In this document: piece by piece, positions 8,160 to 58,284 of the stretch | Layout of the letters: every line of letters starts with the position of its first letter | Position numbering within the stretch: the stretch's first letter is position 1 | DNA from: a phage | Reading direction: 5' to 3' (one strand) | Sequence record: PZ534534.1 | DNA: 64,000 bases | Notes under the pieces: generated by a model | Databases searched by the model: none | Seen by the model: the letters and a program-made list of their open reading frames with translations, nothing else | Told to the model about the DNA's origin: nothing | Translations under genes and position numbers: made by a program

Positions 8160-8606
8160 TCAGTCCTCGCATTTAACAAATTTTTCTACAGATCCACCAA
8201 GCACAGCTTGTTGTTTAATGGCACTTTCTTCATCATAGTGGATAGATTTATGTTCCGTACCTCCAAACTTACCTGTGTGGAAGGTGTGCACCCAAATCTC
8301 TTTAGGAAGGGATTTATTCTCTTCCTCCACCAACTCCCACATACCCCACAAGTGATCTGCGATATCTCTGATGAAATATCCCTCACCGAGGTTTGTATTC
8401 ACACTATAAGCTGATTCGTGATCTCCGCAAATATAACGGAAGGCAGTGTACTCTTTACCTGGTGTGAAGTGAGTGTCCATTAGTATAGCTGTTAAAGAAT
8501 AAGGGTCTCGAAAGCCTAAGAACTTTAGTTTAACAATTTCGACATTTACATCCGCAAGATTATCCATGACGATCTCCTCTGTTCGGTTGGTGAGATAATC
8601 ATACAT
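8160..8606 (-). CDS. hypothetical protein (148 aa)
   Basis: ORF tightly packed with neighbours on minus strand; no motif recognised. Confidence 0.5.
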   Translation of the reverse strand: MYDYLTNRTEEIVMDNLADVNVEIVKLKFLGFRDPYSLTAILMDTHFTPGKEYTAFRYICGDHESAYSVNTNLGEGYFIRDIADHLWGMWELVEEENKSLPKEIWVHTFHTGKFGGTEHKSIHYDEESAIKQQAVLGGSVEKFVKCED

Positions 8607-29814: not shown

Positions 29815-30549
29815 ATGAACGAGTTCAGAGACCACTGTGTAGCCAACCACCTGTGGTCAGAGATACTGGAGTATGACGGTCAAAATCTTTTTTGGAAGAT
29901 AGACATTCTGGCAGGTAGCGGTGTAGGATATGTTAAAACTTCAGCAGGCTCCAGAGCTGACAAGGGGCAAGATGCTGATGGCAGGCCTGTAGTTAGTCTA
30001 GGAAAGCATTGCACTAAAGGTGCCCACGTCATAATCTGGGAAATGTTTAACGGCCCTGTACCGGAAGGGTATGAGGTTGACCACATCAAGGAGATAAGGG
30101 AAACAGGTGGTGTGGCTGATAACAGTATTCAAAATTTGCAACTACTCGAGCCCACAGATAACAAAAAGAAAAGTTGCAAGATACCTCGTAGCAACAACAA
30201 ATCTGGCAGGGTCGGGGTGCACTATTCTGAAGAAAGAGATGCATGGATAGCTCAAGGCACAGACTCTGTAGGGGAAAGGGTCTGGCTAGGCCAGTACAGA
30301 ACTTTTGAAGAGGCAGAGTGGGCAAGAAAGTTCTTCGAAGATAATGGTTTTTCGCACAAGAGTGGAAGAGCCGTGCAGTATAATAATACCAGCGGTTGCT
30401 CAGGGGTGAATTGGGATAAAACCCATGAAAGATGGGTAGCCAGAATTTATGTAGATGGTAAAAGGAAATGCCTTGGGTATTTCAAGAATAGGGACGATGC
30501 AATAGCTGCAAGAAAGAATGCTGAGAAGAAACAGGAGGGGACAGTATGA
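29815..30549 (+). CDS. HNH homing endonuclease with AP2 DNA-binding domains
   Basis: HNH core GYEVDHIKEIRETGGVADNSIQNLQLL; two AP2-like segments (GVHYSEERDAWIAQ..., GVNWDKTHERWVARIYVDGKRKCLGYFKNRDDAIAARKNAE). Free-standing between primase-helicase and DNA polymerase. Confidence 0.65.
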   Translation: MNEFRDHCVANHLWSEILEYDGQNLFWKIDILAGSGVGYVKTSAGSRADKGQDADGRPVVSLGKHCTKGAHVIIWEMFNGPVPEGYEVDHIKEIRETGGVADNSIQNLQLLEPTDNKKKSCKIPRSNNKSGRVGVHYSEERDAWIAQGTDSVGERVWLGQYRTFEEAEWARKFFEDNGFSHKSGRAVQYNNTSGCSGVNWDKTHERWVARIYVDGKRKCLGYFKNRDDAIAARKNAEKKQEGTV

Positions 30550-32969
30550 GTAATTGGTGCTTCGATCTGGAGGCCTCTGGGCTTTTGGAAGACCCAGATC
30601 TTTATTATCACTGCGGTCTGTTTAAAGAGCTGAATAAGAACCGTTTTATGCTGTTCCTTCCTCTAAATGACCGCACACACTACTCCGAGGAGGATATAGA
30701 AAAGGCCAAGAACTTCATTCTGGCAAAGAAAACTCTTTATAAAGATTTTGAAGTTCGCATAGCAGATTTTTCGGAGTTGGAAGGTTGGCTTACAGGCAAT
30801 TCCGACTGGTCACCAACAGCTTTGAACTGCCATAACTGCTACAGTTATGACTTTATGCTGATGGAAAGATTATCCGGTATTCATTTTGATATGTTCCGTG
30901 ATCCTAAATGCATGGGGACTATCAACGACCACCAGGTTAACCTGTTTGATACGTTGGCGATGAGTCGAATTTTGTGGCCTGATCGCCCTTTACCAAAAGG
31001 TTGTCCGGACTCTGTATTCAACCCGGTTACTAAGAAAATGCAGCCTGTTGGTCCTCACGGCCTTATGGCATGGGGCTACGCCCTTGGTAACCAGAAAGTT
31101 CAAATTGATGACTGGCGCGATCTTCCGTTGTGGAAGTATGTGGATCGTGTATTCGAGGACGTTATCATCCAGGAGCTGCTCTGGAAAGAGCTGGTAGCGG
31201 AATCAAAAGGTGTATTCTACGGCAAATCTGACATGCAGAACTTTATGTACGATCCTGCCAAAGAGAAGCCGAAAGGGTTCAAGAAGATCACCTGGAAGAA
31301 CGCATTACGCCGAGGCATGCTGCAGCACTTCCTGATGGAGCTGCAGGCCCGTCAGGGTGTGTATTTCGACATAGACGGGGCTATTGCTTTACGTGACCGC
31401 TGTGATGCGTGGATGAAAGAGATCGCTGATCGTGTTGAACCTCAACTTCCTTTAAAAGAGTTATCAATATCTCAGCGGCCTAAATTCCCTGAAAAGCCGT
31501 TCAACCAAGATGGGACAATTTCCAATAATGGCTGGAAATGGTTAAAAGATAAGCTTGGCTACCCTGTAGACATGAGCGCTTTAGAGTTCAAAGCCCCACC
31601 TAAGCGAGCATTTACCTCTACAGGAGATGTCAGTAAGATAGGGATAAAATGGTGTGAAGAGATGGGCTGCAAAGACCCCGATAAGATGGCTGATTTCTTG
31701 AGAGGCTATATTAAGGGCACCTCCACACCACAACCTTTACCTAAAGAGCTAATGGATCAGGCAATAAGTGATCTACAGCAGAAGCGAATGCCGGACTGCA
31801 AGATACCTATGAAAATCAGCAACCAGGACGACATTAAGCGATACCTGATCAGTGCTGGTTGGCTTCCGACAATGTGGAGAACTAAGGATGTAACTAAAGA
31901 CAGCAAGAAGAAAGCTCTACCTGATGCAGATGTTGATGCACGAGTATATGCATATATGGACGAGCTTTTAGAGTCAGAGTATTGTGACCTGATTATCAAC
32001 TTCTGGAACAAAACTGATGCTAAGTTCCAGACAACCGTGCACAAGTTCCGAAGCTTTCCTAACTCCGAAAGGATTAAAAAGGAAGTATTCGGGAAAATAC
32101 GTAGAAAAGCTAGGGCACTTATTACTTCTCCGCAACTGAAAGATACGTTTGGACACCTATGCCCGAATCTTGAAAAATTGAACGGAGAGATGGCTAAAGA
32201 TATCGTCTTGTGGTTATCATTGCGAAACCGCAGATCGGTCCTTGATCCAATCAAGGAGGATAAGGTTGATACTGGTCTTCTTAATCACCCACGTTTGAAG
32301 ATTGACCATAAGCTTCCTGCTAAAAGTTCTGGGTTAACAAACACTTCACGACAGAAACACAGTATTTGTGCAAACATGCCTAAACCATCTCCTAAAGTGG
32401 TTATGGGTAAAGAGATGCGTAGTCTGTGGGGTGTTCCTCCTGGATACTTTCAGATCGGTATTGACGGGTCCAACTTAGAGCAGCTTATCGGGGCTTGGGG
32501 TGCCTTTGAGTTCGACAACGGCTTGTATTATGATGTTGTAAGTAACGGGGACGCACACCAAAACAATGCTGAGGCATATACAAAAGTAGCAGGCAGAGAG
32601 GTGTCTCGTAACGACGGTAAACCTATCACGTATGGGGTTATGTACGGGGCACAAAAAGATAAAGTTGCAGATATGCTGGACATCTCTCCAGAGTTGGGAC
32701 AAAGGGTAATCGATGCACTTTGGGATGCCAACCCTGGTCTTAAGGGGCGTAAAGAGGATCTGGAGAAATTCTGGGAAGCAACGGGTAAGAAGTTTATCTA
32801 CTCTTTTGATGGTCATGCTATCTGGACCCGATCTAAACACTCTTTACTTAATGCATACCAACAGAATGGTGGTGCATCGCTGTGTGACTTAGTTGGGATA
32901 CTCATGCACCACCAAATGGTGAAGCGTGGGTGGTACGATGAAGGTGTCCGTCGTATTATCTATTACCAT
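30546..32969 (+). CDS. DNA polymerase, family A (T7 gp5-like), exon 1
   Basis: Exo I motif FDLEASGL at N-terminus; motif B RNDGKPITYGVMYG; FDGHAIWTRSKHSLLNAYQQNGGASLCDL parallels T7 gp5 segment before motif C; frame ends ...IIYYH then stop, inside motif C. Confidence 0.75.
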
Positions 32970-33812
32970 AAATAACATTGTGGCTTCATAGAGTGATCTA
33001 TGTCGAATAACCTCTTTAATTGACGGGAAAGCTAAGTTGACTTTTACACCTGAGTATGGTAAAAGCTCAATATGCTAATCCGCAGCGAAGACTAAAGGGG
33101 TGTAGTTAAAATGGCTAGAACAGCTGATTATCACGGGTATACCGTGTTTGATGATGGAACAATACCTTTATCGAAACGTGATCATACAACAATGTTTTGT
33201 TTTGATAATGGTAGAGGTTACCTTTGCGTAACCATGCTAATCGAGGGGAAGCAGTGCACAAAAGGTGTCCACCACCTGGTTGCTGAATGCTTTGTATCAA
33301 ACCCGGATCCTGAAAGGCTCACATGGGTGAACCATAAGGATGGGAATAAGTACAACAATGCATACTGGAACCTGGAATGGACCACCCCTGGTGGAAATAT
33401 CAAGCACGCCTATGATAATGACCTCAGAGTAAGGCCAGTTGGTGAGTATAATGCCAACGCTGTGCTGACAGAAGATGAGGTAATAGAGATTTGCGAACTG
33501 TTGCAGAGTGGTCTACGACAATGCGAGATTAGGGATCTTGGATATCCTTATGAGACCGTCAGGGCTATAAAGCAAAGAAGACAGTGGAAACATATCTCTA
33601 AAAACTACACCTGGTAGTAACGTTCAGAGACTATCGAAAGCATAGCTCCAACACAGGTTGGTGTGAAGAAGCGAGTAGAGTAGGCCAGCAAGTGCGGTCG
33701 AAATGGGAGGTGCCTTGTTACCAAGGCAGTGAGGTAGTCCGATCCATACAGGAAACTGTATGGCTATGCACGTAATGGTGCGGGGTAGCTTAACGACCTA
33801 CCTGAACAGATG
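32970..33812 (+). mobile_element. group I intron interrupting DNA polymerase motif C
   Basis: Exon 1 ends in T (cat), intron ends in G (...cagatg). Joined exons read YYH|DEYQLQV, restoring YHDE motif C. P7-like CAGAGACTA and TAGTCCGA segments lie downstream of internal ORF. Boundaries +/- a few nt. Confidence 0.6.
33111..33617 (+). CDS. intron-encoded HNH homing endonuclease
   Basis: VHHLVAECFVSNPDPERLTWVNHKDGNKYNNAYWNLEW is a typical HNH_3 signature; ORF lies inside the intron. Confidence 0.65.
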   Translation: MARTADYHGYTVFDDGTIPLSKRDHTTMFCFDNGRGYLCVTMLIEGKQCTKGVHHLVAECFVSNPDPERLTWVNHKDGNKYNNAYWNLEWTTPGGNIKHAYDNDLRVRPVGEYNANAVLTEDEVIEICELLQSGLRQCEIRDLGYPYETVRAIKQRRQWKHISKNYTW

Positions 33813-34166
33813 GATGAGTACCAACTTCAGGTCCCTGACACGCCTAAGTATAAGACTGTGTACACCTTCGACACAATTGAAGAATTGGAAGCATTTAAGG
33901 CAGAGCAGGAAGCCAAACTTCATGTGTTCGACGGTCATAAGTACAAAAAGGCACGCAAGGATGAGGACGGAAACGAAGTGGTTGACAGAGACGGAAACAC
34001 GGTGTACGATCCTATCCTGAACGATGACGGAAAGCTTGAACTTATCTGGAGCCCTGTGGGTGAAATGGTGGTGCATTGCTTCTGGCAAGCTTCTAAAATG
34101 ATGGGAGTCCCGTTCCAGATCACAGGTGAATACTTGTGTGGTCGTAATTGGGGTGATTGTCACTAA
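33813..34166 (+). CDS. DNA polymerase, family A, exon 2 (C-terminal motif C region)
   Basis: Begins DEYQLQV and ends ...GEYLCGRNWGDCH, parallel to T7 gp5 C-terminus ...GKMGPNWAICH; same frame as exon 1. Confidence 0.65.
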   Translation, partial: DEYQLQVPDTPKYKTVYTFDTIEELEAFKAEQEAKLHVFDGHKYKKARKDEDGNEVVDRDGNTVYDPILNDDGKLELIWSPVGEMVVHCFWQASKMMGVPFQITGEYLCGRNWGDCH

Positions 34167-34215
34167 TGTAAACTATCAACACATGGAAGTGTTGTTGAGC
34201 AAAGAGGAGACTTTT

Positions 34216-34500
34216 ATGGTAGTAGAACCAACAAAAACATTTACATCCATGACTATTCCTGTTATTATGCAGGTGGAGTGTGTTCAGGTATCTCAAGTGT
34301 GGCCTGGCACCAAAATCCCAACAGGGCCTGATTTCTTTCAGGTTGGGAAAGTGTACAATGTCTGGAAGGCACCAGATTGTTACCCTTTCATTAAAGATGA
34401 CCGTGGAATGTTGTGGTATCTTGGAAATGATTTGACACTGCACCTTGGGAATGCTATTATTGCAGTATTCAGACTTAACAAGAAGGAGACCGATCAATGA
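34216..34500 (+). CDS. hypothetical small protein, paralog family 1
   Basis: ATG after AAGAGGAG RBS (track start 34126 would overlap polymerase exon 2). C-terminus FFQVGKVYNVWKAP...GMLWYLG shared with next two genes. Confidence 0.5.
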   Translation: MVVEPTKTFTSMTIPVIMQVECVQVSQVWPGTKIPTGPDFFQVGKVYNVWKAPDCYPFIKDDRGMLWYLGNDLTLHLGNAIIAVFRLNKKETDQ

Positions 34501-34724
34501 CAACTTTGGTTAAAGCTACTTTTGTAGAAGAAAAGATGACAGACCTGTCCTTCTTTAAAGAAGGAAAGACCTACGAGGTTTATTACGATAAAGATCGTGC
34601 AAACAAGATGATTAAAGACGAGGAAGGGATTGCCTGGTTTATCTCCCATCTGGCAAACGGTGAGTATCATATCTACGGAACCACCCTGCTTGCCAAGTTT
34701 GTAGCTGTTGAAGAGGACCTATGA
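34497..34724 (+). CDS. hypothetical small protein, paralog family 1
   Basis: FFKEGKTYEVYYD...EEGIAWFISH...YHIYGTTLLAKF pattern shared with neighbours. Confidence 0.5.
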   Translation: MTTLVKATFVEEKMTDLSFFKEGKTYEVYYDKDRANKMIKDEEGIAWFISHLANGEYHIYGTTLLAKFVAVEEDL

Positions 34725-34915
34725 AAGTAAAGTATCTGGCTGAGGGTATGAGTAGGTATTTCACCCTTGGTGAAGAATATTGGCCCTTTACAAGCAACGG
34801 CGATGTCTACGTGAAAGATAATTTCGGCACTCCGTGGTTTCTGCACTCTAATGGGCTGGGATACTCCATTTACTGTGGTGCAGTGAACAACACAACCCTT
34901 GCAGAGTTCGTTTAG
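34721..34915 (+). CDS. hypothetical small protein, paralog family 1
   Basis: YFTLGEEYWPF...FGTPWFLHSNG...YSIYCGAV pattern shared with neighbours. Confidence 0.5.
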   Translation: MKVKYLAEGMSRYFTLGEEYWPFTSNGDVYVKDNFGTPWFLHSNGLGYSIYCGAVNNTTLAEFV

Positions 34916-34925
34916 AGGAGGTAGA

Positions 34926-35297
34926 ATGTTAGTAAAAGGTACCCACACAGTCAAACAACGTATCGAAGTTGAGATCGATGACTGTGAGCTGAAGCATATT
35001 TTACGATCATGCTCCAACGTTTTGCTCCTCAGTATTCTCCAGGAGCGAGTGGAGAACGAGTTCTTAAATGCACTGGCAGGCCGCCCTGGTGACTTCTGTG
35101 TGCGTAAGCGTGGTGACAACAAGTCATGGCTGTGGGAGATAGACGCAGAATGGGATTACCACAAAAATGAGGGTATAGATGAGCCTATTCGTGAATTGAC
35201 AGACAAAGAGGTTCAGACGTACAATGAAGTTTGTCATTGGGCAACACGCCAACAAATTTACCTCGACCCTGTGTGGCTGATTGAAAATAGTCATTGA
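34926..35297 (+). CDS. hypothetical protein (123 aa)
   Basis: ATG after GAGGAGG RBS (track start 34899 upstream in same frame). Confidence 0.5.
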   Translation: MLVKGTHTVKQRIEVEIDDCELKHILRSCSNVLLLSILQERVENEFLNALAGRPGDFCVRKRGDNKSWLWEIDAEWDYHKNEGIDEPIRELTDKEVQTYNEVCHWATRQQIYLDPVWLIENSH

Positions 35298-35322
35298 CAA
35301 GAAGTAAGATTAGATATAAGAT
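35294..35322 (+). promoter_or_regulatory. sigma70-type promoter (TTGACA-17-TAAGAT)
   Basis: Read directly upstream of 35374 gene. Confidence 0.5.
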
Positions 35323-35373
35323 GCTTCACACAAACAGAGAGTTGATTTTTAAATAATTGAGGAGACTGCTAAA

Positions 35374-35628
35374 ATGAAAATCATGTTGAAACCAGCATGC
35401 GTTGCAAATGACCGAGCTTTTAAAGATTGCACGCTTGGTGCTATTTATGAAGCAGAGTTTTGTGAGAACCCTTTAGTAAAAGCCCTTTTGGAAGAAGGGG
35501 CTCCTTTATCACAAGAAGAGATTGATGAGCTGGAAAACTCAGCCCAGTGCCTTACCTTTAAAGATGATGAAGGAGATTCTGTCTGGTGCACCGTTAACGA
35601 AGTGGTTTTTGTAAAACCTGAACATTAA
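35374..35628 (+). CDS. hypothetical small protein, paralog family 2
   Basis: KP..AFKDCT...DDEGDSVWCT pattern shared with 35692 gene. Confidence 0.55.
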   Translation: MKIMLKPACVANDRAFKDCTLGAIYEAEFCENPLVKALLEEGAPLSQEEIDELENSAQCLTFKDDEGDSVWCTVNEVVFVKPEH

Positions 35629-35631
35629 TAC

Positions 35632-35660
35632 TTGACAAGAAAGATGGGGCCAGATATAAT
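35632..35660 (+). promoter_or_regulatory. consensus sigma70 promoter (TTGACA-17-TATAAT) with -10 embedded in GATGGGGCC/GGCCCCATC palindrome
   Basis: Perfect -35 and -10 hexamers with 17-bp spacer read directly; inverted repeat brackets the -10. Confidence 0.65.
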
Positions 35661-35691
35661 GGCCCCATCTAAGAAAAAGGAGACCATAGCA

Positions 35692-35952
35692 ATGACCAAA
35701 CAATATCAACGAATTAAAGCCAAGGTTAAGCCAGACTATCTGGAGAAGGACTCCGCTTTTCGGGACTGCACAGCTGACAAAGTTTACACAGGGGCCGTCC
35801 TGTTGAACGATAAACTTGAAGTAGATGTGCTGGGTAAAGAGGCCGTTATCGAGGATGACAACGGTGACTGTGTTTTCTGCACCACACGGGAGCTAGAAGT
35901 CTTAGAATACTTCGGTGAAATCTTCAACTCCTTAGACGACGAGGAAGCGTGA
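35692..35952 (+). CDS. hypothetical small protein, paralog family 2
   Basis: ATG after AAGGAG RBS; KPDYLEKDSAFRDCT...DDNGDCVFCT pattern. Confidence 0.55.
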   Translation: MTKQYQRIKAKVKPDYLEKDSAFRDCTADKVYTGAVLLNDKLEVDVLGKEAVIEDDNGDCVFCTTRELEVLEYFGEIFNSLDDEEA

Positions 35953-36341
35953 TGAAAAATATTTGGGATATTGATATCTTTGAAGCCTCTAAGCTTGACG
36001 GTGCTGATGGAGTTATTATGGTGTCTGATGGCAAGGCAACACTAACTTCCGGAGATATCATCTATGACTTGGACGAGCTGGCGCTTCTGAAATCTACCGG
36101 TAACACTTTAGAGGAGCGTCTTCAAGGCTTCGCCTTCAAAGAAGGCACAAATACCGCCATGATGTGCACCACACGGACAGTTCAGGTTGGTAACGGTGTC
36201 TATATGATCATTGCTGTGTGTCCTAAATTCAGCAACGTCAATAAAGATGATGCTGACGCTGTCAACGATGTGGTTGTTCTCTTCGTGGGTGACGCTATGG
36301 CAGATCTGATGAATGCAGGAGAAGCAGCAAATGAAGACTGA
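35949..36341 (+). CDS. hypothetical protein (130 aa)
   Basis: ORF overlapping upstream stop. Confidence 0.5.
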   Translation: MMKNIWDIDIFEASKLDGADGVIMVSDGKATLTSGDIIYDLDELALLKSTGNTLEERLQGFAFKEGTNTAMMCTTRTVQVGNGVYMIIAVCPKFSNVNKDDADAVNDVVVLFVGDAMADLMNAGEAANED

Positions 36342-36633
36342 AAACATCACCCCAGCAGGGTTTTTAAAAGTATACCGTGAACTGCTATATACTACAGAGG
36401 ACAGTGTTCTAGAGTATCCAGAATATCTTTTGCTGTATAAGTATCTGCAGGAGGCTGGTGAAAATCTGCCAGTTAGTGCAGAAGGTGGTCCAAACTGGAT
36501 ATACAGCGCATGGAGAAAGGTTGACATTCTCCCAGACCCAGGTAAAGATATGGTAGTTTGGCAGCTTATCAACAACATCGGGATTCCAATCTTTGATGAA
36601 GCTGTTAAAATCTATTTTGAACTTGACGATTAA
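36331..36633 (+). CDS. hypothetical protein (100 aa)
   Basis: ATG after AGGAGA RBS; 11-nt overlap with upstream gene. Confidence 0.45.
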   Translation: MKTENITPAGFLKVYRELLYTTEDSVLEYPEYLLLYKYLQEAGENLPVSAEGGPNWIYSAWRKVDILPDPGKDMVVWQLINNIGIPIFDEAVKIYFELDD

Positions 36634-36650
36634 TATCAGGAGACCTTAAG

Positions 36651-36896
36651 ATGGCTGAAGCAGTTGCTCGCGCAGGACAGAAAGTACGTTGTGTGGAAGT
36701 AGGTTTTGGTGGCAAAGGGTGTCAAAACTTGACTCAAGGTAAGGAATACGCTGTTATTTCTGGTGGTGGCGACGAGAGTATTGTGTTCGAGGACCACATC
36801 CTGGATGCTGAAAACTTTGAAATCTTTGACGACGATGGGGATCCGATCACCTGCCTGCTAGACGGGAATTGGGGAACTTTTGAAGTGATTGGCTAA
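36651..36896 (+). CDS. hypothetical small protein (81 aa)
   Basis: GGAG RBS; DDDGDPITC motif loosely related to family 2. Confidence 0.5.
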   Translation: MAEAVARAGQKVRCVEVGFGGKGCQNLTQGKEYAVISGGGDESIVFEDHILDAENFEIFDDDGDPITCLLDGNWGTFEVIG

Positions 36897-36979
36897 CAAA
36901 TACCTATTGTAATTTGCAGAAGGGGATGCTAAAATAGTGTCTCCTTCTATGTTGTTCAAATAAAATCGGAGATTCCATA

Positions 36980-37345
36980 ATGGAACAAATGAACGATCAA
37001 ACGTCGGTTGCAATGAACGAGCAAGAACAACCTCAAGAATTTTTCTTAGGGTTAAGTAAAGATCAAGTGTCTCTTTTGCTAGTGCTTTCTTCTTTCATGG
37101 GAAGACTTCAGGAGCTCACACAACAACCGGAGGCTGAACAATTATTTCAGGCTCTGCGTGAAGAAGAAAAATATCGTCGTTTGGACTATGCCTTAGGTTG
37201 GGTAGCTCAACAACGAGATATGCTAATGGCCCTCTCTGGGACTACAAGTTTTGCAATGGGGCTGTTGGCTCAAGTTCAGGACAAATTAATTCAAGCAGGG
37301 TTTGCACATACGGCAAACACTAACGAAGAACAAGGAGACAAATAA
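36980..37345 (+). CDS. hypothetical protein (121 aa)
   Basis: GGAG RBS; Gln-rich. Confidence 0.5.
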   Translation: MEQMNDQTSVAMNEQEQPQEFFLGLSKDQVSLLLVLSSFMGRLQELTQQPEAEQLFQALREEEKYRRLDYALGWVAQQRDMLMALSGTTSFAMGLLAQVQDKLIQAGFAHTANTNEEQGDK

Positions 37346-38579: not shown

Positions 38580-39158
38580 ATGAAATGCAAACGTTGTGGG
38601 GAGGACAAGGAGGCCTCCGACTTCTATACCAGCAACAAATCAACGTGCAAAGAGTGCTGTAAGAAGGCCAGCAGGGAGGCTGACCAATTTGCTAAAGACT
38701 CTTCAGAAAAAGGTGTAATACGTGTGTTGTACAAGACTCAAAAGTGCAACAGCAAGCAAAGAGGTCACCCTCCTCCGACTTACACCAAAAAAGAGTTTAA
38801 GGAGTGGCTATACCTGAACGGTTACAAAGAGTTGTATGATCAGTGGGTAGCCAGCGGATACGACAAAAGGAAAAAGCCTTCTTGTGACAGGATAGATGAT
38901 TTCAAAGGGTACTCTTTTGATAATATCCGTTTAACGACCTGGGGAGAAAATAAAGACAAGCAGACAGAGGATATTTTGTTACATAGAAGCACCAGCGGTA
39001 GACGGTGCAAAAATGTAAGGAGGTTGGACATGAATGGCAACGTTCTTAAAGAGTGGGTATCCCACAACTCTTGCAGCAGAGAAACCGGAATATATGTTGG
39101 TTACTACATTCATGAAAAAATTCCAGCTCCCGATGGATACCTCTATGAATACTTCTAA
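38580..39158 (+). CDS. putative endonuclease-like protein with N-terminal zinc ribbon
   Basis: N-terminal CxxC...CxxC (CKRCGED...CKECCKK); CDRIDDFKGYSFDNIRL resembles DRID-type His-Me finger motif. Weak. Confidence 0.35.
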   Translation: MKCKRCGEDKEASDFYTSNKSTCKECCKKASREADQFAKDSSEKGVIRVLYKTQKCNSKQRGHPPPTYTKKEFKEWLYLNGYKELYDQWVASGYDKRKKPSCDRIDDFKGYSFDNIRLTTWGENKDKQTEDILLHRSTSGRRCKNVRRLDMNGNVLKEWVSHNSCSRETGIYVGYYIHEKIPAPDGYLYEYF

Positions 39159-52525: not shown

Positions 52526-52744
52526 ATGACAACCCGTAAAATTAAAGTTGTTTGCATTGAATCGACTGGGGGCGCTTTTGTAGTTGGTCAGGAATATAAT
52601 GCGGTTTTAATGGGTACGGATTGGAAGGTTAAAGGCCTTAATGGTTACGAGTACGGCACTACTTGCGGCTTGCGTGGTCGAATCGGATACGTGAGTTTAG
52701 ACAATAAAGAAAAATTTGTTTTCGACACCCTTGTGAGTAAATAG
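52526..52744 (+). CDS. small early protein (72 aa)
   Basis: Leader hairpin GGGCCAAAAGGCCC + CACACAAAGGGAGAAAG RBS. Confidence 0.55.
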   Translation: MTTRKIKVVCIESTGGAFVVGQEYNAVLMGTDWKVKGLNGYEYGTTCGLRGRIGYVSLDNKEKFVFDTLVSK

Positions 52745-58032: not shown

Positions 58033-58284
58033 TTAACGTTCTACAAAAATACCGTTTAGTTCAATAACCAGGAATTTCTGGTCTTCACTGTCGTCTCGTG
58101 CCAGCACCTCACAGACGTATCGGTCATCTCCATCATCATCGCAGTCAAATACAAGACTGAGGACTTTATCATGATAAACCTTCGCCACTACCGCCTCGTA
58201 AGTATTGCCGATTGTGAATCCAAGATAATCTCCGATGCATTTGACAACAACATGGTCGCCAGCATTCAAGTCAATCTTCGTCAT
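58033..58284 (-). CDS. hypothetical protein (83 aa)
   Basis: ATG after AAGGAG RBS (track start 58350 upstream in same frame). Confidence 0.5.
   Translation of the reverse strand: MTKIDLNAGDHVVVKCIGDYLGFTIGNTYEAVVAKVYHDKVLSLVFDCDDDGDDRYVCEVLARDDSEDQKFLVIELNGIFVER

Follow-up and report, generated by a model that had tools for sequence, protein, structure and literature searches.

An old and constrained array of mini-protein paralogs, with a predicted small-barrel fold, beside the DNA polymerase gene of a Vequintavirus

Introduction

What does a row of tiny paralogous genes next to a phage DNA polymerase signify: copies still diverging in conflict with the host, or an old set in which each copy is held in place? 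The question is raised by a 64,000-nucleotide stretch of phage DNA (sequence record PZ534534.1), called the window here. Between positions 34,216 and 35,952, it carries five mini-protein genes in two sets, family 1 (F1a, F1b, and F1c) and family 2 (F2a and F2b). A preliminary description had proposed that both are tandem paralogous sets and had taken the duplications as a sign of diversifying selection.

Small “hypothetical” early proteins are the largest group without known function in phage genomes, and more and more of them turn out to be triggers or inhibitors of bacterial immunity. More than 100 genomes carry the genes of this block with the annotation “hypothetical”, and our literature search returned no functional study of them in Vequintavirus. 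With moderate confidence, we favor the view that they form an ancient, fixed array of paralogs built on one barrel domain resembling Gp54 of phage Bas11, and that their products act as protein-binding accessory modules.

Results

Paralogy within the two families

All five open reading frames (ORFs) were confirmed on the + strand where they had been proposed, just downstream of the DNA polymerase gene:

F1a, 34216..34500, + strand: 94 residues, phrog_12922; ATG 8 nt after AGAGGAG
F1b, 34497..34724, + strand: 75 residues, phrog_12623; predicted six-stranded small β-barrel
F1c, 34721..34915, + strand: 64 residues, phrog_12802; third family-1 paralog
F2a, 35374..35628, + strand: 84 residues, phrog_12544; family-2 motifs split by an insertion of ~30 residues, predicted helical
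F2b, 35692..35952, + strand: 86 residues, phrog_11936; second family-2 paralog

Each ORF is preceded by an AGGAG-type ribosome-binding site. The stop–start overlaps on both sides of F1b (F1a/F1b and F1b/F1c) read ATGA; thus, the F1a–F1b–F1c trio appears to be translationally coupled.

Smith–Waterman local alignments scored against 500 shuffles place both sets far above chance. F1a and F1b score 65 against 21.8 ± 3.7 for the shuffles (z 11.8, 0/500), F1b and F1c 52 (z 6.1, 0/500), and F2a and F2b 85 (z 11.6, 0/500), so that none of these pairs behaves like shuffled sequences, the outcome named beforehand as speaking against paralogy. The score of F1a and F1c is 35 (z 2.6, with 13 of 500 shuffles as high); the family-1 trio is therefore linked transitively, through F1b. 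In alignments with the orthologs, the family-2 motif stands as the invariant columns D-x-A-F-x-D-C ... Y ... N ... D-D-x-G-D-x-V-x-C-T. Of the motif proposed for family 1, the columns F, G, Y, D, G, and W are invariant, but “IYG” is missing from F1a. A metal-binding reading of family 2 was ruled out, as only two Cys are conserved and CxxC pairs are lacking.

At the protein level, paralogs share 19–37% identity, and no similarity or repeats were found between the copies at the DNA level. Because the paralogs lack such DNA-level similarity, the duplications appear to be ancient and older than the genus.

Conservation and selection

The window represents a Vequintavirus, an rV5-like E. coli myophage, and its positions 33700–37000 share 95–97% nucleotide identity with more than 100 coliphages (I29, FFH2, rV5, and several BASEL phages). 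We compared eight Vequintavirus genomes, namely the window, JLBYU08, two IMG/VR contigs, ECP26, S127 BCL3, rV5, and HMD-6. Each gene of the block around the two families is present once and in the same order in 8/8 genomes. Among 50,697 phage records searched by tblastn, full-length F1b occurs in 118 and F2a in 116 of ~119 Vequintavirus records, while nothing outside Vequintavirus rises above noise for either protein. Downstream of the polymerase in the phages 4MG, KB57, CR3, and W70, BLAST and hidden Markov model (HMM) searches returned no F1 or F2 members; among the neighbors of the block, only homologs of a 123-residue and a 106-residue protein were found there.

Pairwise ratios of nonsynonymous to synonymous substitution (dN/dS, NG86) over the eight genomes are 0.012 for F1a, 0.17 for F1b, 0.10 for F1c, 0.11 for F2a, and 0.09 for F2b; an 81-residue protein further downstream reaches 0.21, and the flanking polymerase C-terminus and an SSB-region gene lie in the same range, at 0.05 and 0.02. 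Gene-wide, every copy is maintained by purifying selection. These low ratios, together with the presence in nearly all Vequintavirus records, argue that the genes are real. Moreover, single-copy synteny, low dN/dS, and the lack of DNA-level repeats indicate that the duplications are old and fixed and that each copy is constrained. The step from tandem duplication to diversifying selection is thus not supported, with gene-wide dN/dS of 0.012–0.21, constant copy number, and no DNA-level repeats.

The same data bear on an arms-race scenario, in which the genes would be recent tandem duplicates under ongoing diversifying selection to escape or counter host defenses. Variation of the expected kind does occur. 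F1b and the 81-residue protein are the most variable in the block (83–97% identity, dN/dS 0.17 and 0.21), F2a is truncated or frameshifted in JLBYU08 and Alma, and one contig carries P0064, a chimera of F2b and a neighboring 129-residue protein; additionally, the structural analog Gp54 of Bas11 evades CapRel via point mutations (PMC11578894). However, no gene-wide ratio exceeds 0.21, and few genes of the region are as constrained as F1a, which is 98–100% identical across the eight genomes. Copy number is constant, the genes are near-universal in the ~119 records, and the paralogs share no DNA similarity. We regard an ongoing arms race as decidedly improbable and return to an old, fixed array.

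The F2a variants are of interest in their own right. In a few otherwise intact genomes, the gene is frameshifted or truncated (73 residues in JLBYU08, L001 7675–7930; 50 residues in Alma; variants P0062, P0065, and P0070), which suggests that F2a may be dispensable in the laboratory.

A wider domain family

Family 1 represents a domain of ~60 residues with the consensus h-K-x-G-D-x-h-K-C ... F-T-x-G-K-E-Y-x-V ... h-x-D-D-E-G-x-x-W/h ... F-x-h (alignment A5). The domain has no Pfam model and is spread over many PHROGs of “unknown function” (12922, 12623, 12802, 4927, 3523, 3249, 16833, 12851, and others). In other phages, it occurs singly, as 2–6 tandem repeats per polypeptide, or fused to DUF3310. 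When the F1, F2, and superfamily profiles were run against 5.8 billion proteins in word-indexed searches, nearly all matches were Vequintavirus orthologs or relatives of phrog_4927. The F1 profile was also searched exhaustively with HMMER against 1.84 billion cluster representatives, where it had only 10 matches. The foreign matches include two single-domain proteins as well as P0078 (346 residues, four repeats), P0079 (571 residues, five or six repeats), P0080 (a DUF3310 domain after two repeats), and P0081 (two repeats), with E values of 8e-8 to 1e-4 for P0078–P0081. Further single-domain members lie on the IMG/VR contig L008, and the genome of Bas10 (phage IsaakIselin, Drexlerviridae) encodes at least three proteins of the superfamily (bas10_0043, the C-terminal half of bas10_0050, and bas10_0065).

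Two more members are encoded within the window, both outside the coordinates of the preliminary description:

36651..36896, + strand: 81-residue protein (W81), phrog_4927; insertion between its two motifs
58033..58284, - strand: 83-residue protein, phrog_12851, …GDHVVVKCIGDYLGFTIGNTYEAV…FDCDDDGDDRYV

Circularity was avoided by excluding the tested family from the query profile in hhalign. A profile of foreign repeats only matches F1 with a probability of 97% (E 5e-11), and a profile without W81-type sequences matches the 81-residue family with a probability of 94.7% (E 6e-8, 54 columns). The score of the latter, 38.4, compares with a column-shuffle maximum of 15.1, and PHROG cross-links connect the two as well. 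As this match lies far above the shuffles, the 81-residue ORF is the fourth member in the block. Thus, F1a, F1b, F1c, and the 81-residue protein, at least four products, are ancient paralogs of one domain, with the shared pattern x-G-x-x-x-x-C...F-T-x-G-K-E-Y-x-V...h-x-D-D-x-G-x-x-W. The 83-residue protein is probably a fifth superfamily member: an A5 profile not containing it finds it by hmmsearch with an E value of 0.0012 in 1,881 sequences, in line with its assignment to phrog_12851. Two other small ORFs, at 52526–52744 (+) and 8160–8606 (-), carry a motif of the type G-x-x-Y-x-A/V ... D-D-D-G-D with weak scores (E 0.09–0.17).

The genomic surroundings of the multi-repeat relatives raise the possibility of a role in replication. 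The gene of P0079 is flanked by those of a DnaB-type helicase and a Toprim primase, and that of P0078 lies upstream of a Prim-Pol, both in replication modules of unrelated phages; this neighborhood is the same as here, where the block lies between DNA polymerase and SSB-region genes. The mini-proteins could accordingly be replisome or nucleic-acid accessory factors, SH3-, Sm-, Tudor-, or OB-like barrels that modulate phage DNA replication through binding to DNA, RNA, or a replication protein. The fusion of P0080 to DUF3310, labeled as nucleotide kinase in PHROG, fits this idea, as does the fact that nucleic-acid binding is common among SH3-like small barrels. However, all members are acidic (pI 4.0–6.5 and net charge -0.4 to -13.5 for the proteins of the block), and direct nucleic-acid binding is therefore disfavored. 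Position is weak evidence, since accessory genes are common in such modules and phage early and middle regions routinely mix them with replication genes, and sister genera (4MG, KB57, CR3, and W70) have these replication genes but lack the block. We consider a replisome factor unlikely and a protein-binding accessory role the better description.

Predicted fold

Computed from the F1 alignment, the AlphaFold2 model of F1b has a mean predicted local distance difference test score (pLDDT) of 92 and a predicted template modeling score (pTM) of 0.80. Its six strands form a small β-barrel with a prominent β1–β2 loop, as in Gp54, and the long β1–β2 connection contains a short helix. The crystal structure of Gp54 from phage Bas11 (9AXB) is its sole strong structural match. 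In F1a, the barrel domain occupies the C-terminal two thirds, preceded by an extended N-terminal segment. We describe the relation of F1b to Gp54 as a predicted common fold, a rare one, at the level of fold only. Sequence homology between F1 and Gp54, whose sequence was obtained through the Bas10 ortholog bas10_0057, was considered and is not claimed, as the profile comparison is no better than column shuffles.

Gp54 is the second trigger of the fused toxin–antitoxin defense protein CapRelSJ46 (Zhang et al, Nature 2024, PMC11578894; PDB 9AXB, complex 9ERV). It is small and non-essential, and its own function is unknown; it binds the pseudo-zinc-finger antitoxin domain of CapRelSJ46 directly, partly unfolds, and triggers defense (PMC11578894). 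Close homologues in Bas10, Bas5, Bas8, and SECphi27 do not activate CapRelSJ46 (PMC11578894).

Against viral predicted structures, Foldseek returns dozens of uncharacterized mini-proteins of Drexlerviridae and Vequintavirinae (template modeling scores of 0.7–0.8). One structural neighbor, a 78-residue protein of Vequintavirus isim, is labeled “putative minor capsid protein”, and relatives of the family cross-match phrog_14592, “virion structural protein”. Taken at face value, these labels would make the mini-proteins virion-associated decoration or minor structural proteins. The cross-matches are weak (1e-7 to 1e-3), though, the labels are untested annotations, and the genes follow sigma-70 promoters in the early/replication region, in the same orientation as polymerase and SSB. 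A place in the virion is highly improbable, and we keep to non-structural accessory proteins.

The place of family 2

Whether F2a and F2b share the domain of family 1 depends on the profile used. A broader superfamily profile matches family 2 with a probability of 52–58% (E ~1e-4, 33–36 columns) and a score of 25–26, against 8.1 ± 2.0 and a maximum of 16.4 in 200 column shuffles. The profile of foreign repeats only gives 53.7% (E 1.3e-4) and a score of 25.6, against 8.3 ± 1.6 and a maximum of 11.8 (n=60). Both halves of family 2 (F-x-D-C-T-x-G-x-x-Y and h-x-D-D-x-G-D-x-V-x-C) align in their order, and the F2a insertion falls between the two. Probably, then, F2a and F2b are a divergent branch of the F1 domain superfamily, which carries an insertion and two conserved Cys.

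Alternatively, there are two unrelated families, and the G-x-x-Y and D-D-x-G-D patches of F2a and F2b are convergent or due to chance. The direct hhalign comparison of F1 and F2 is not significant (probability 2% over 12 columns), HMM-to-sequence comparison of F2 with the superfamily HMM gives E values of 0.56 and 3.8, AlphaFold provides no confident fold for F2a, and the invariant D-C-T and C-T motifs are specific to family 2. On the other side, the broader-profile match has the motifs in the right order and lies ~8–10 standard deviations above shuffles. Further, the spacing Cys(β1)-16-Tyr is the same in F2a and a repeat of P0079 (Smith–Waterman z 3.7 between the two), and in the low-confidence F2a model the strands follow the order of the barrel, with two inserted helices apart. 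Separate origins are possible, if somewhat doubtful, and we continue with family 2 as a divergent branch.

Directly downstream of F2b, with a TGATG overlap, lies one further candidate:

35952..36341, + strand: 129-residue protein, phrog_8284

Its residues ~50–80 resemble the second half of family 2 (…FKEGTNTAMMCTTRTVQV), and the hhalign score against F2 is 18.6 compared with a column-shuffle maximum of 18.4. This marginal score is the one obtained with the chimera P0064 excluded; an initial hhalign probability of 75% was an artefact of the chimera in the alignment and was discarded. From its sequence, the 129-residue protein is at most a tentative, marginal family-2-like member. Paralogy thus reaches beyond the coordinates given earlier, robustly at 36651–36896, probably at 58033–58284 (-), and marginally in the N-terminal half of 35952–36341.

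P0064 is found in one metagenomic contig. It is an in-frame chimera of 131 residues, in which the F2b N-terminus is joined at C-T-T-R to the C-terminus of the 129-residue protein. In the window, an identical 12-nt stretch, TGCACCACACGG, encodes C-T-T-R in both F2b (35878–35889) and the 129-residue gene (36165–36176). As the junction falls exactly at this stretch, a 287-bp deletion by microhomology recombination is implied. The chimera reflects recombination and is not necessarily evidence of homology.

Promoters and an inverted repeat

Each family-2 gene had been described as having its own consensus promoter. A sigma-70-type site does precede each of them, but the one before F2a is not a full consensus:

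35294..35322, + strand: sigma-70-like promoter before F2a, TTGACA-17-TAAGAT, 10/12
35632..35660, + strand: sigma-70 promoter before F2b, TTGACA-17-TATAAT, perfect consensus
35642..35670, + strand: conserved inverted repeat GATGGGGCC / GGCCCCATC, surrounding the -10 box of the F2b promoter

The F2a site was marked as sigma-70 promoter P220 by the annotators of rV5, and the F2b promoter keeps both of its hexamers across the eight genomes. Taken together, these features suggest an accessory block between DNA polymerase and SSB-region genes, with rightward transcription from putative sigma-70-type promoters. The whole window holds 12 near-consensus sigma-70 promoters (TTGACA-17-TATAAT, ≤1 mismatch) compared with 0.54 expected from shuffles.

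The arms of the inverted repeat at 35642–35670 co-vary over the eight genomes (e.g., GATAGGACC/GGTCCTATC in rV5), with intermediates of the G-U type on the + strand. A U-tract does not follow, and no comparable hairpin was found at the F2a promoter. In read-through transcripts, the repeat could serve in RNA processing or stability; alternatively, it could act as an operator.

Surroundings of the block

The remaining features around the block, all on the + strand, are:

30546–32975, + strand: DNA polymerase, first piece
33111–33617, + strand: HNH ORF
33810–34166, + strand: DNA polymerase, C-terminal piece
34926–35297, + strand: 123-residue protein, phrog_6273
36313–36633, + strand: 106-residue protein, DUF7238
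from 36980, + strand: two genes called SSB in one record's annotation

In a Pfam scan of all ten ORFs of the block, the sole match was DUF7238 in the 106-residue ORF. The 123-residue protein, labeled “putative DNA stabilization protein” in one record, and the 106-residue protein are conserved more broadly than families 1 and 2. Downstream of their polymerase genes, Seunavirus 4MG encodes homologs of both proteins, and Mydovirus KB57 only one of the 123-residue protein.

The polymerase gene is split. A candidate group I intron at 32960–33762 (+), which matches Rfam RF00028 over the full model length with 29.4 bits (gathering score 50; E 1.2e-4), carries the HNH homing-endonuclease ORF at 33111–33617. 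In ECP26, S127 BCL3, and contig L007, the polymerase is a single unbroken ORF, and in JLBYU08, rV5, and HMD-6 it is split by a gap of ~320 bp without the HNH ORF. Judged by their sequence motifs, two further free-standing ORFs are putative HNH-type endonucleases: 29815–30549 (+), directly upstream of the polymerase, and 38580–39158 (+), beyond the SSB-region genes. Counting the intron ORF, 10 kb thus hold three such ORFs.

Sixteen records labeled “Campylobacter phage” (MG0656xx, host Campylobacter jejuni) are 95–97% identical to this Vequintavirus region. Their host labels are probably wrong, or the phages are contaminants.

Discussion

An ancient, fixed array of paralogs on a Gp54-like barrel domain accounts for the paralogy, the constraint on each copy, and the predicted fold. 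Its products would be non-structural accessory proteins made early or in mid-infection, small protein-binding modules of which each paralog may have specialized after duplication for a different partner, such as a host factor, a defense protein, or a replisome-associated protein. The coupled F1a–F1c trio probably acts jointly, mirroring the tandem-repeat polypeptides of other phages; this suggestion draws on the translational coupling of the trio and on the 2–6 repeats per chain found elsewhere. By analogy with Gp54 of Bas11, bacterial immune sensors could recognize such barrels.

Several observations weigh against this interpretation. A Foldseek search against the PDB gave no significant match and did not retrieve 9AXB, and the fold is a prediction for one paralog. 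A PDB sequence and profile search gave no match, and hhalign scores of the A5 and A3 alignments against a seven-sequence Gp54-family alignment, 10.5 and 9.9, fall within the column-shuffle distribution. For family 2, the direct comparison with F1 is not significant, the AlphaFold2 model of F2a is of low confidence (pLDDT 52) and was not used in the fold search, and the profile match has an hhalign probability of ~54% over 33–36 columns that include the acidic DDEGD patch, possibly a convergent feature. Finally, no annotated homolog with a function was found: every PHROG match is of “unknown function”, and there is no Pfam family.

A more far-reaching proposal, rather improbable when taken as a whole, would unite the F-T-x-G-K-E-Y ... 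D-D-x-G barrel and the Gp54 fold in a large unrecognized superfamily of phage “bait or adaptor” mini-domains. Within it, conserved hydrophobic core strands would be captured by immune sensors such as the CapRel pseudo-zinc-finger, and the subfunctionalized array (F1a–c, W81, F2a/b, and others) would form a hetero-oligomer equivalent to the multi-repeat polypeptides, which would inhibit or decoy host defense or replication factors.

In the literature searched, we found no description of the paralogy, of the broader domain family, or of the link to the Gp54 fold. The object itself is common in kind: small accessory phage proteins with a fold that is already solved. Roughly a dozen PHROGs of “unknown function” are joined into one domain family and tied, at the level of fold, to the only solved example, Gp54 of Bas11. 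This provides a concrete handle: the fold can be tested, the motifs are conserved, and the paralogs form a natural set in well-studied phages (rV5 and the Vequintavirinae of the BASEL collection). It also corrects a tempting inference, as diversifying selection does not follow from tandem mini-paralogs, which in this block are old, fixed, and constrained.

Among known systems, the layout of the block recalls the promoter-early stem-loop (PeSL) cassettes, reportedly described by Arbiol and colleagues in 2010 from hyperplastic small-ORF regions of T4-type phages. Rows of small ORFs with sigma-70-like promoters are common to both, and a conserved stem-loop accompanies the F2b promoter. In contrast to PeSL cassettes, the stem surrounds the -10 box and lacks a U-tract, and no cassette sequence is repeated between the two promoters except CTTGACAAGAA. 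Moreover, unlike hyperplastic regions, the Vequintavirus block is not plastic, its gene content being fixed across the genus.

At the level of the proteins, SH3-like small β-barrels (SH3, Sm, Tudor, KOW, FeoA, and PliC) count among the closest known systems. T7 Ocr, an analogy drawn for Gp54 (PMC11578894), exemplifies small acidic phage proteins that inhibit one defense and trigger another. It resembles the mini-proteins in being small and acidic and, as is predicted for them, non-essential and expressed early; Ocr, however, mimics DNA with a helical structure, and its fold is unrelated. The closest comparison is Gp54 itself. It differs in that it belongs to another PHROG (phrog_7421), shows no significant sequence or profile similarity, and is a single gene in a siphovirus, whereas family 1 forms a tandem array; the β2–β3 hairpin of F1b is also five residues longer. 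Both are acidic, non-structural phage mini-proteins of similar size (66 residues in Gp54 and 64–94 in family 1), and they share an F-K-x-G ... G-x-x-W register, in which F20, G23, G44, and W47 of F1b correspond to F21, G24, G40, and W43 of Gp54 (Smith–Waterman z 3.2). Furthermore, the phage genus of Gp54 carries proteins of the F1/W81 superfamily beside Gp54 (bas10_0043, 0050, and 0065).

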